Positions 28,943 to 32,623 of a DNA stretch of 64,000 nucleotides are shown in pieces. The notes beneath the pieces were generated by a model. The model did no database searches. It worked only from the letters and a program-made list of their open reading frames with translations, and was not told the origin of the DNA. The position numbers and the translations under genes were made by a program. The stretch's first letter is position 1, and each line of letters starts with the position of its first letter. The stretch is from Escherichia coli (GTDB lineage Bacteria; Pseudomonadota; Gammaproteobacteria; Enterobacterales; Enterobacteriaceae): the NCBI RefSeq assembly GCF_003018255.1, contig NZ_CP027440.1. One strand, 5' to 3'.

Positions 28943-29578
28943 ATGCGTCTGACAGCAAAACAGGTGACATGGCTGAAAGTTTGCCTGCATCTTGCCGGAT
29001 TGTTGCCGTTTCTCTGGCTGGTCTGGGCGATTAATCACGGTGGATTGGGTGCCGATCCGGTGAAAGATATTCAGCATTTTACTGGTCGCACTGCACTGAA
29101 ATTTTTGCTGGCGACCTTGTTAATCACACCTCTGGCACGCTACGCAAAACAGCCGTTATTGATACGCACTCGCCGCCTGTTAGGCTTATGGTGCTTTGCC
29201 TGGGCGACACTGCATTTAACCAGTTACGTATTGCTGGAGCTGGGCGTGAATAATCTGGCGTTATTAGGTAAGGAGTTAATTACTCGGCCTTATTTAACGT
29301 TAGGTATTATCAGCTGGGTAATTTTGCTTGCGTTAGCGTTCACTTCAACCCAGGCGATGCAGCGAAAACTCGGTAAACACTGGCAACAGTTGCATAACTT
29401 CGTCTATCTTGTCGCGATCCTGGCCCCAATACATTATTTGTGGTCAGTGAAGATTATTTCACCGCAGCCGCTCATCTACGCTGGGCTGGCGGTACTGCTT
29501 TTAGCCTTACGGTATAAGAAGTTGCTTTCCTTTTTCAACCGGTTACGCAAGCAGGTTCACAACAAATTATCTCTATAA
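28943..29578 (+). CDS. msrQ: Methionine sulfoxide reductase heme-binding membrane subunit
   Basis: 211 aa polytopic membrane protein adjacent to msrP. Confidence 0.9.
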
Positions 29579-29604
29579 CTTCATATTGCCGACAAAGTAC
29601 GCGT

Positions 29605-29645
29605 TATCCCTGCCGGATGCGGCGCGAGCGCCCTATCCGGCCCAC
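29605..29645. repeat. REP (repetitive extragenic palindromic) element
   Basis: GCCGGATGCGGCGCGAGCGCCCTATCCGGCC palindrome just after msrQ. Confidence 0.6.
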
Positions 29646-29775
29646 ACAGATCGCATCAAGTTATGTTTCGTTTGTCATCAACCTCAAATCATCGACATAA
29701 TTTATTTTATTTCAATAAGATAGATAAGCACACCTGAGAGAACTATTCTCTTGTCTCCTAAGAGTTGTTGCATTT

Positions 29776-29797
29776 TGTTATATGTTACAATATAACA
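29776..29797. promoter_or_regulatory. Zur-box-like palindrome upstream of zinT
   Basis: TGTTATATGTTACAATATAACA about 40 bp upstream of the zinT start. Confidence 0.55.
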
Positions 29798-29834
29798 TTA
29801 CACATCATATACATTAACTCTGGAGGAAACTGTT

Positions 29835-30485
29835 TTGGCGATTCGTCTTCATAAACTGGCTGTTGCTTTAGGTGTCTTTATTGTTAGCGCTCCTGCCTTT
29901 TCGCATGGTCATCACTCACACGGCAAACCCTTAACAGAGGTCGAACAAAAAGCTGCTAATGGTGTTTTTGATGATACCAATGTACAAAACCGAACGCTCA
30001 GTGACTGGGATGGAGTCTGGCAATCCGTTTACCCTTTACTGCAAAGTGGCAAACTTGATCCCGTCTTTCAGAAGAAAGCGGATGCAGATAAAACCAAACC
30101 ATTTGCTGAAATTAAAGATTATTATCGCAAAGGTTATGCGACAGATATCGAAATGATTGGCATTGAGGACGGCATTGTCGAATTCCATAGAAATAATGAA
30201 ACAACATCCTGTAAATATGATTACGATGGATACAAAATACTCACCTATAAATCAGGCAAGAAAGGCGTTCGTTACTTATTCGAATGTAAAGATCCTGAAA
30301 GCAAAGCCCCTAAATATATACAATTTAGCGATCATATAATTGCACCACGAAAATCATCTCATTTTCACATTTTTATGGGTAATGATTCCCAGCAATCTTT
30401 ATTGAATGAAATGGAAAACTGGCCAACGTATTATCCCTATCAGTTGAGTAGCGAAGAAGTGGTCGAGGAGATGATGTCTCATTGA
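29835..30485 (+). CDS. zinT: Periplasmic zinc/cadmium-binding protein
   Basis: 216 aa with signal peptide and His-rich stretch HGHHSHG. Confidence 0.9.
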
Positions 30486-30574
30486 TTTTTTTGCGCTGAC
30501 TTCAGTTATTTAACAGAACAGTGCCTGGTAGTAACAACAATAATTTACCAAGACAAATAAGTAAGACAAACTCA

Positions 30575-30608
30575 GACACGCTCATGCTTGAGACGTGTCT
30601 TTTTTATT
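30575..30608 (+). terminator. Rho-independent terminator
   Basis: Stem GACACG/CGTGTC followed by TTTTTTATT. Confidence 0.5.
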
Positions 30609-31154
30609 ATGTCTGTAGAAAAAAACTGAGAAAACGGCGAACAATAAATACACAACTCACCAATACAGACTGGCTGCGCCAATGTCTCCAGGAGCAAGTC
30701 ATCTGTCATGGTAAAGCTAACCAGAAATATAGGTTAATTTTGGTATTTAAACCTTTTTTACTTGTTAGTATGATACAAAGGCTTTCAAAAAAGCTGGGAA
30801 ATTCAACAACTCTTGGAAATTATGGACTTTGTCCCGCGGCTTTAATCTGACGGCCGCGTTCCTTTTTTTGCTCAATTATTGACCCCTTCTCTACGCAAAT
30901 TCAGTTCCCACCACTAACTTTGCGGCAGCTTCGTAGGATCAATGTCTAAAAGAATAATGGTGACCGATAAGAAAACGACTGAATAACTGCAGATTTTCGC
31001 TCGAGACCTTCTTGTCAGATCCATAGCGAATCAAGTGCTGAATGTCACAGTATCGAACAGAAAACAGTGACGATCTAACCCTTCAAGAATATTCTACGAT
31101 TGTTCTGTTTAGGAAAAGCAAGGCGGGAAGTCGGGAGATAAGTCATTGATAAAG

Positions 31155-31244
31155 TGGCGGAGAGAGGGGGATTTGAACCCCCGGTAGAGTTGCCCCTACT
31201 CCGGTTTTCGAGACCGGTCCGTTCAGCCGCTCCGGCATCTCTCC
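31155..31244 (-). tRNA. serU: tRNA-Ser (anticodon CGA)
   Basis: Minus strand reads GGAGAGATGCCGGAGCGGCTGAACGGACCGGTCTCGAAAACCGG...CTCTCCGCCA with a long variable arm. Confidence 0.9.
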
Positions 31245-31337
31245 GTTCAGATGGTTGCCATGATGCCAGGAAATTTGGCATTTTAACAGTCCCTGTCCGT
31301 GCAATTTTGTTCAAGTGACGAGTTTGCGAGCAAAACG

Positions 31338-32135
31338 ATGATTAAGTGGCCCTGGAAAGTACAAGAATCAGCACATCAAACTGCCCTTCCCTGGCAGGAA
31401 GCACTATCGATCCCCCTTTTAACGTGTCTGACGGAACAGGAACAAAGCAAATTAGTCACTCTTGCCGAACGTTTTTTACAGCAAAAGCGGCTTGTTCCTT
31501 TACAGGGCTTTGAACTGGATTCATTAAGAAGCTGCCGGATAGCACTTCTATTTTGCCTGCCCGTTCTGGAGTTAGGACTGGAATGGCTGGATGGTTTTCA
31601 TGAAGTCTTAATTTATCCTGCGCCATTTGTGGTCGATGATGAATGGGAAGACGATATCGGTCTGGTGCATAACCAACGTATTGTTCAGTCAGGTCAGAGC
31701 TGGCAGCAAGGGCCTATCGTTTTGAACTGGTTGGATATACAAGATTCTTTTGATGCTTCTGGTTTTAACCTGATTATTCATGAAGTCGCTCATAAGCTGG
31801 ACACCCGTAACGGCGATCGCGCCAGCGGAGTTCCCTTTATTCCGTTGCGTGAGGTTGCTGGCTGGGAACACGATCTTCATGCTGCAATGAACAACATTCA
31901 GGAAGAAATCGAATTGGTTGGCGAGAATGCGGCGAGCATTGATGCTTATGCTGCCAGTGATCCTGCTGAATGTTTTGCCGTACTTTCTGAATATTTCTTT
32001 AGCGCCCCAGAACTTTTTGCTCCACGTTTCCCTTCATTGTGGCAACGTTTCTGCCAATTTTATCAACAAGATCCTTTGCAGAGACTGCATCACGCTAATG
32101 ATACAGACTCGTTTTCGGCGACGAATGTTCATTAA
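31338..32135 (+). CDS. mtfA: Mlc titration factor A
   Basis: Start MIKWPWK; HEXXH-type motif (HEVAHKLD). Confidence 0.9.
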
Positions 32136-32235
32136 TTAACAACTTTGCAGATTAATTAACCAATTGAAATGACTTATGAAATTTAGTGTTGACAGACAAA
32201 GTACCGCTAAGTAATATGCGCCCCGTTCACACGAT

Positions 32236-32311
32236 TCCTCTGTAGTTCAGTCGGTAGAACGGCGGACTGTTAATCCGTATGTCACTGGTTCGAGTCCAGT
32301 CAGAGGAGCCA
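32236..32311 (+). tRNA. asnT: tRNA-Asn (GUU)
   Basis: TCCTCTGTAGTTCAGTCGGTAGAACGGCGGACTGTTAATCCG...AGGAGCCA. Confidence 0.95.
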
Positions 32312-32623
32312 AATTCTAAAAATTCGCTTTTTAGCGCAATGTCACTGACCTTAGTTGAGCATTGCTTTTTAACGGATAGCGGGTTTTTGACATCTTAAGC
32401 GCCCTCGACCTTTATGGTTGAGGGCGTTTTGCTATGAACGCCATCACCATTTTCCCCTCGATTACAAAACTTGAGTAATTCAGTAGTCTCCCCTCTTGCA
32501 ACTCACACCCAAAACTGCTTAACGAAAAGTTATTAATTTTCAATCATATTGCTATCAGGATTTACATTTTTTCGCTGTGCTAGAAAGGGCGCATTTATGT
32601 TAGCTCGTTCAGGGAAGGTAAGC

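Follow-up and report, generated by a model that had tools for sequence, protein, structure and literature searches.

In a 64,000-nt window of Escherichia coli DNA (contig NZ_CP027440.1, assembly GCF_003018255.1), the interval between zinT and the tRNA gene serU (30486-31154) is best explained as a non-coding spacer that is one of two old zinT-serU haplotypes in Escherichia, an explanation that is probable when taken as a whole. One haplotype is distinguished from the other by a sharply bordered segmental replacement, and the strain has inherited the yodB-less version rather than deleting a yodB of its own. Relative to K-12 the locus resembles a deletion, yet the K-12 arrangement is probably the derived one, and the adjacent tRNA gene is not responsible for the difference.

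The left anchor of the locus is zinT (yodA; 29835-30485, plus strand), which encodes a periplasmic zinc-binding protein. Its 216-aa ORF matches Pfam PF09223 (ZinT, E=1.3e-84), its stop codon ends at 30485, and the gene is annotated as zinT in the nearest genomes. The right anchor is serU, a convergently transcribed tRNA-Ser(CGA) gene on the minus strand at 31155-31244 (ARAGORN; Rfam tRNA, 57 bits). Divergent from serU lies mtfA (31338-32135, plus strand; Pfam Peptidase_M90, E=4.6e-60), which carries the mtfA annotation in neighboring genomes. The spacer between the anchors measures 669 bp and has 39.2% G+C versus 48.5% for the whole window, in an AT-rich trough that extends over zinT itself as well. 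The initial annotation had described an AT-rich interval of about 670 bp with one short implausible ORF and no yodB-like ORF between zinT and serU; both statements proved accurate, with the coordinates of zinT and serU exact.

In K-12 (NC_000913.3), the order is zinT (b1973), yodB (b1974, a putative cytochrome b561), serU (b1975), and mtfA (b1976), with nothing else annotated between them, and a K-12-type laboratory strain has an identical gene order. The zinT-yodB-tRNA-Ser order that the initial annotation gave for K-12 is thus correct. The zinT-serU interval spans 1,442 bp in K-12 versus 669 bp in the window. Megablast and MAFFT alignments define a haplotype-specific segment of 222 bp (30486-30707) that occupies the place of 995 bp in K-12, namely a 342-bp spacer, yodB (531 bp, 42% G+C), and 122 further bases. 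The borders of this segment are abrupt. The window and K-12 share 97.5% nucleotide identity in zinT up to the stop codon (versus 87.9% for the window and E. albertii); exactly at the stop codon, identity falls within a few bases from ∼97.5% to ∼55-60%, and it recovers ∼425-447 bp before serU. The remaining 447 bp (30708-31154) form a non-coding stretch that is present in both haplotypes and abuts the serU 3′ end. It is 95-96% identical to K-12-type strains, and the MG1655 annotation of this stretch is empty. Its 20 mismatches with K-12 include a cluster of six at 30715-30730, the others being sparse, and the transition zone reaches ∼30730. serU is 100% identical to K-12 over 90 nt.

The 222-bp segment has weak similarity to the K-12 zinT-yodB spacer (local score 24.5 versus 12.2±1.8 for shuffled sequence), with its first ∼200 bp aligning. 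The sole clearly shared piece is a 37-nt terminator hairpin, in which 29 of 37 positions are identical. A simple deletion allele of the K-12 arrangement was considered and rejected, because the 222 bp are not contained in the K-12 995 bp and, apart from the hairpin, have no counterpart there above ∼60% identity. The initial annotation had offered a deletion or a replacement; alignment to K-12 supports a replacement-type indel and disposes of the simple deletion.

Searches for yodB itself were negative. K-12 YodB matches Pfam PF01292 (Ni_hydr_CYTB) with E=3e-22, and no ORF in the interval matched any Pfam family. A tblastn search with K-12 YodB at E≤100 returned nothing in 30486-31154, the best match elsewhere in the window having E=0.11, so the translated search that the initial annotation had named as a way of exposing a diverged yodB yielded none. 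A blastn search with the K-12-specific yodB segment found no match anywhere in the window. Frameshifted yodB variants do occur in some assemblies (P0047 and P0059), but given these empty searches and the recurrence of the interval in thousands of independent complete genomes at 96-99.4% identity, it is exceedingly improbable that yodB is present in a form too diverged or frameshifted to detect or that the interval is an assembly artifact.

The sole long ORF in the interval (30521-30850, 109 aa, GTG start) was evaluated as a gene and rejected. In addition to lacking a Pfam match, it overlaps the zinT terminator hairpin and runs through it, its reading frame is not open in E. albertii, and in strain 55989 it has accumulated nine amino-acid changes versus just 12 nt differences across the 222-bp segment. 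RefSeq annotation under the match to the interval was absent in 30 of 30 sampled genomes. An Rfam 15 search of 29500-32400 at E≤1 gave tRNAs plus sub-threshold noise; two tRNAs alone pass the gathering score, and matches to sX4 and Plastid-psbI-rps4 overlap serU at scores far under their gathering scores.

The yodB-less arrangement is common. Among 5,426 complete E. coli genomes, the 222-bp segment was found in 2,304 (∼42%), the K-12-type yodB segment in 3,114, and the 447-bp block in 5,420. The first two figures are separate match counts that add up to 5,418 of 5,426, consistent with alternative haplotypes. Strains without yodB include CE10, ST95-32, APEC O2-211, uk_P46212, 55989, and E110019, and strains with it include K-12 derivatives, HS, O157:H7, O111:H8, O121, and B7A. 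Judging from the named strains CE10, ST95, and ST131, the basal groups B2, D, and F presumably lack yodB. The yodB-less strains are assumed to fall mainly in phylogroups B2 and F, with some in B1, to which we take 55989 and E110019 to belong; the yodB-containing strains are assumed to fall in A, B1, and E. zinT sequences track the haplotype: those of one class share 98.6-99.5% identity, and those of different classes share 97.5-97.8%.

The best match to the interval among complete genomes is 99.4% identical. The closest complete genome, DETEC-S792 (98.8% over 24 kb), has the same organization, with the spacer unannotated. Over 22000-46000, none of the 5,426 complete E. coli genomes exceeds 98.8% identity and the next best reaches ∼97.3%, indicating that the lineage of the window is poorly represented among complete genomes.

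Because ∼42% of complete E. coli genomes and E. albertii share the yodB-less arrangement, the presence or absence of yodB is an ordinary gene-content polymorphism. It is already recognized as such: two ST410 sub-clones differ in yodB, and a qPCR marker has been based on the gene (PMC10786849). No papers were found when the literature was searched for yodB and zinT together. The initial annotation implied an event private to this strain, which is at odds with the occurrence of the haplotype in 2,304 of 5,426 genomes and in E. albertii. The absence of yodB matters little; yodB is an E. coli accessory gene whose presence or absence is visible in every pangenome.

A location next to a tRNA gene had suggested a recombination hotspot, and in other strains serU does act as a hotspot of integration. 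CP-933U in O157 and PAI-CFT073-serU are presumably serU-linked elements. In O157:H7, espJ comes directly after yodB with no intact serU between them, many genomes match the query only as far as 14 or 62 nt into the tRNA, and the GenBank record of phage SerU-LTIIb ends in yodB. An Stx1d prophage sits between serU and yodB (PMC9729726). In the window, serU is unoccupied by any island or prophage. A second copy of the serU 3′ end was not found in the 64-kb window with three mismatches allowed, no integrase ORF is present in the interval, and a search of both alleles for direct or inverted repeats (att sites, target-site duplications, and insertion sequence ends) gave chance-level short repeats only. 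One of these, an 11-nt AATGATG(T/C)CTC repeat at the zinT and yodB ends, was examined as a recombination site and rejected, as recombination there would not yield the observed junction.

The lack of an att repeat, an integrase, or a second tRNA end, together with the 447 conserved base pairs that separate the variable segment from serU, indicates that tRNA-targeted integration was not involved. Thus, the hotspot proposal is correct as a description of serU in other strains and fails as the mechanism here. A recent, strain-specific deletion or island excision at serU by tRNA-targeted site-specific recombination would draw on the standing of serU as a real integration site elsewhere, but the same sequence is present in 2,304 genomes and E. 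albertii, the closest genome is identically organized without yodB, and the traces of such recombination are absent across the 447 bases up to the tRNA 3′ end. A recent excision is therefore highly improbable.

Outgroups bear on the age and polarity of the polymorphism. A ZinT scan of species-representative genomes recovered 80 loci, in which Escherichia is represented, besides E. coli-type contigs, by two loci, neither of them from E. fergusonii, E. marmotae, E. ruysiae, or clade I. The locus of E. albertii NBRC 107761 reads msrQ-zinT-564 bp-serU-mtfA, without yodB. Its spacer aligns to that of the window over the whole length, through the junction, and the 222-bp part scores 47.0 against a null of 11.4±1.6. 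About 110 bp are missing from the E. albertii spacer, including a second hairpin (see below). The other locus, from Escherichia sp. MOD1-EC7003, is a third allele in which the equivalent of 30488-31008 (521 bp) is missing, and this larger deletion makes it uninformative on yodB. There, the 146 bp nearest serU are followed by 14 nt from the end of the tRNA gene, after which comes an island whose first ORF is integrase-like and 408 aa long. By sequence reading, this first ORF of the island (L003 4981-8112) appears to be a P4-type tyrosine integrase, and the next ORF, of 565 aa, has a C-terminal part resembling pentapeptide repeats. Among the other ∼75 enterobacterial species in the set, zinT never lies beside yodB, msrQ, or serU. 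Two diverged-looking members of ZinT clusters (P0250 and P0251) were tried as outgroups and rejected as ordinary K-12-type E. coli. Likewise, P0047 and P0059 were rejected as diverged orthologues, as their loci are of the E. coli type, flanked by the usual genes, and carry a frameshifted yodB.

The relatives of YodB provide a second line of evidence. YodB is 99% identical within E. coli, and identities elsewhere do not exceed 80%. Copies of 80% identity come from IMG/VR viral contigs and belong to family phrog_31729; their place is past the Q, holin, and endolysin genes, between the Rz spanin gene and HNH/TerS/TerL but on the opposite strand. Copies of 75-77% identity occupy the equivalent lysis/packaging position in Citrobacter and Hafnia prophages. 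Copies of 72-74% are found in a Citrobacter chromosomal islet, the one at 72% being flanked by a Bor-like gene and the one at 74% by a DinI gene. In Salmonella, a homologue of 65% identity occupies a non-syntenic site. Thus, the nearest relatives outside E. coli (72-80%) are mostly cargo genes, or morons, of lambdoid prophages, the others being in non-syntenic chromosomal islets. Between the K-12 segment and the prophage loci, 71% DNA identity extends over yodB and the 88 bp upstream of it, which is the extent expected for a moron consisting of a promoter plus a gene. A tblastn search of the phage genomes in INPHARED gave no yodB-like gene other than the host flank in phage SerU-LTIIb and 27% matches in Acinetobacter records, so the moron evidence rests on the prophage and IMG/VR contexts. 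Prophage homologues with 70-73% DNA identity show the family to be mobile and do not point to any particular donor. As a separate observation, a YodB-like cytochrome b561 annotated as “unknown function” (phrog_31729) recurs in lambdoid prophages of Citrobacter, Hafnia, and their relatives (L104 4959-5561; L083, L087, and L100), and such recurrent cargo may help in thinking about the function of YodB.

Taken together, these data suggest that yodB was probably gained in the K-12-type lineage and that the yodB-less state is ancestral. A gain is favored over an ancient loss because E. albertii is yodB-less and collinear, the relatives of YodB are mostly prophage morons, and no zinT-adjacent yodB was found outside E. 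coli among the enterobacterial species recovered; E. albertii is the one outgroup that informs on this polarity. The direction implied by the initial annotation, a loss relative to K-12, is probably the reverse of what occurred. The low G+C of yodB is weak evidence, since zinT is itself AT-rich and is non-syntenic outside Escherichia.

Alternatively, the ancestor of Escherichia may have had zinT-yodB-serU and lost or replaced yodB once, before or around the split of E. coli and E. albertii, with both haplotypes since persisting in E. coli or being exchanged by recombination; the window would then carry an old deletion or replacement allele. This is possible, given a homologous and equally old zinT terminator at a near-equal offset in the K-12-type spacer, which makes that haplotype old as well, and given one informative outgroup. 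The spacer is also prone to deletion, as E. albertii lacks ∼110 bp and MOD1-EC7003 lacks 521 bp, and yodB has been lost again within ST410 (PMC10786849). However, yodB is beside zinT or serU in no species outside E. coli among those recovered, E. albertii aligns collinearly across the yodB-less junction, and one deletion cannot interconvert the alleles because the 222 bp do not form part of the K-12 sequence. An ancient loss is accordingly viewed as somewhat unlikely.

Under the favored gain, the yodB haplotype would have entered the ancestor of K-12-type lineages by replacement recombination into an ancestral yodB-less locus. The divergence of the donor would have equaled or exceeded that of E. 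albertii, and the crossovers would have fallen at the extreme end of zinT and at ∼30708-30730. The imported 995 bp would have comprised a strongly diverged zinT terminator region, the yodB promoter, yodB (cytochrome b561, PF01292), and 122 bases, with yodB itself coming from a mobile gene family whose members are often morons in lambdoid prophages.

Two hairpins punctuate the spacer. A consensus promoter/terminator scan missed both owing to its loop and bulge limits, and they were detected by direct folding instead. The first is an 11-bp interrupted hairpin on the plus strand (30574-30600) followed by UUUUUUAUU, with a folding energy of -17.9 kcal/mol and z=-3.45. By its structure, the element at 30574-30609 is a good candidate for an intrinsic (Rho-independent) terminator of zinT. 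It lies 88 nt from the stop codon in the window and 93 nt in K-12, and in E. albertii it is kept with a compensatory change of A-U to G-C. In K-12, the stem is retained and the U-tract is absent (GUAUAUUAAU follows). Since the K-12 hairpin lacks a U-tract, transcription of zinT might read through into yodB.

The second terminator-like hairpin, CGCGGCC...GGCCGCG (30835-30858), is followed by UUCCUUUUUUU (element 30835-30869, plus strand). Its folding energy is -14.9 kcal/mol (z=-2.19), and it is identical in K-12. It lies ∼250 nt downstream of yodB in K-12-type strains, and for that reason it is probably a yodB terminator that was left in place, or else an element that was already there.

These elements permit a joint reading, in which the polymorphism is long-lived, dating back to the E. 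coli/E. albertii split or earlier, and a phage-derived YodB was captured directly behind zinT; with the U-tract of the zinT terminator lost there, read-through would place yodB under the control of Zur (zinc starvation). Such a reading is speculative, with a low probability. If true, K-12-type strains would have a redox function linked to zinc limitation, and yodB-less lineages, many extraintestinal pathogens among them, would do without it.

The 146 bp nearest serU (31009-31154) stand out by their conservation across Escherichia. They are ∼90% identical in E. albertii versus ∼60% for the remaining spacer, which is about the conservation of coding sequence, and they are the only part of the spacer that survives in the MOD1-EC7003 deletion allele. 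The core of this block spans about 31028-31110. On the serU strand it has no stable RNA fold (z=+1.1) and no Rfam match. It contains no conserved ORF, as the ATG of a 35-aa ORF (31042-31149) is absent in E. albertii. The block may be a tRNA trailer or processing element (tRNA 3′-trailer RNA) or a protein-binding site.

Several neighboring features of the window were noted in passing. A short way upstream of zinT, at 29776-29797, is a perfect 8-nt inverted repeat, TGTTATAT-N6-ATATAACA, which is a candidate for the Zur box of zinT regulation. Between msrQ and zinT (29577-29642) is a REP-like palindrome, where an naRNA4 match is sub-threshold (35.8 bits versus a gathering score of 59.5). Beyond mtfA, four tRNA-Asn(GUU) genes lie at 32236, 40395, 42219, and 44628 (asnT, asnW, asnU, and asnV). 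yeeJ, which encodes an inverse autotransporter adhesin and is 7,020 bp long in K-12, is reduced to ∼1.8 kb of remnants at ∼32624-34379. DETEC-S792 has two pseudogene fragments annotated at the corresponding place, and the asnT-asnW distance is 8.16 kb in both. As the yeeJ remnant comes directly after asnT, the strain has no HPI island at that tRNA gene.

Among known loci, those of CE10, ST95-32, APEC O2-211, 55989, and DETEC-S792 share the organization of the window and its 669-bp spacer length, at 94.6-99.4% identity. E. albertii NBRC 107761 is collinear with it, including the junction, and differs by the ∼110-bp absence that removes the second hairpin. The K-12 locus is alike in the identity and orientation of the flanking genes, in zinT (97.5%), in the shared 447 bp (95-96%), and in the near-equal offset of the terminator hairpin; it differs in having yodB and in lacking the terminator U-tract that is present in the window. 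Elements at serU in other strains insert between the 447-bp block and serU and duplicate 14-62 nt of the tRNA 3′ end, whereas nothing is inserted there in the window and the polymorphism in yodB is away from the att position, beyond the 447-bp block. Finally, phage morons such as bor have their own promoter and sit between the lysis and packaging modules, exactly the position occupied by the closest relatives of YodB outside E. coli. Nothing of this kind is present in the window itself. Although K-12 yodB is outside any prophage and its DNA identity to the phage copies is ∼71-73%, it is plausibly a captured moron.
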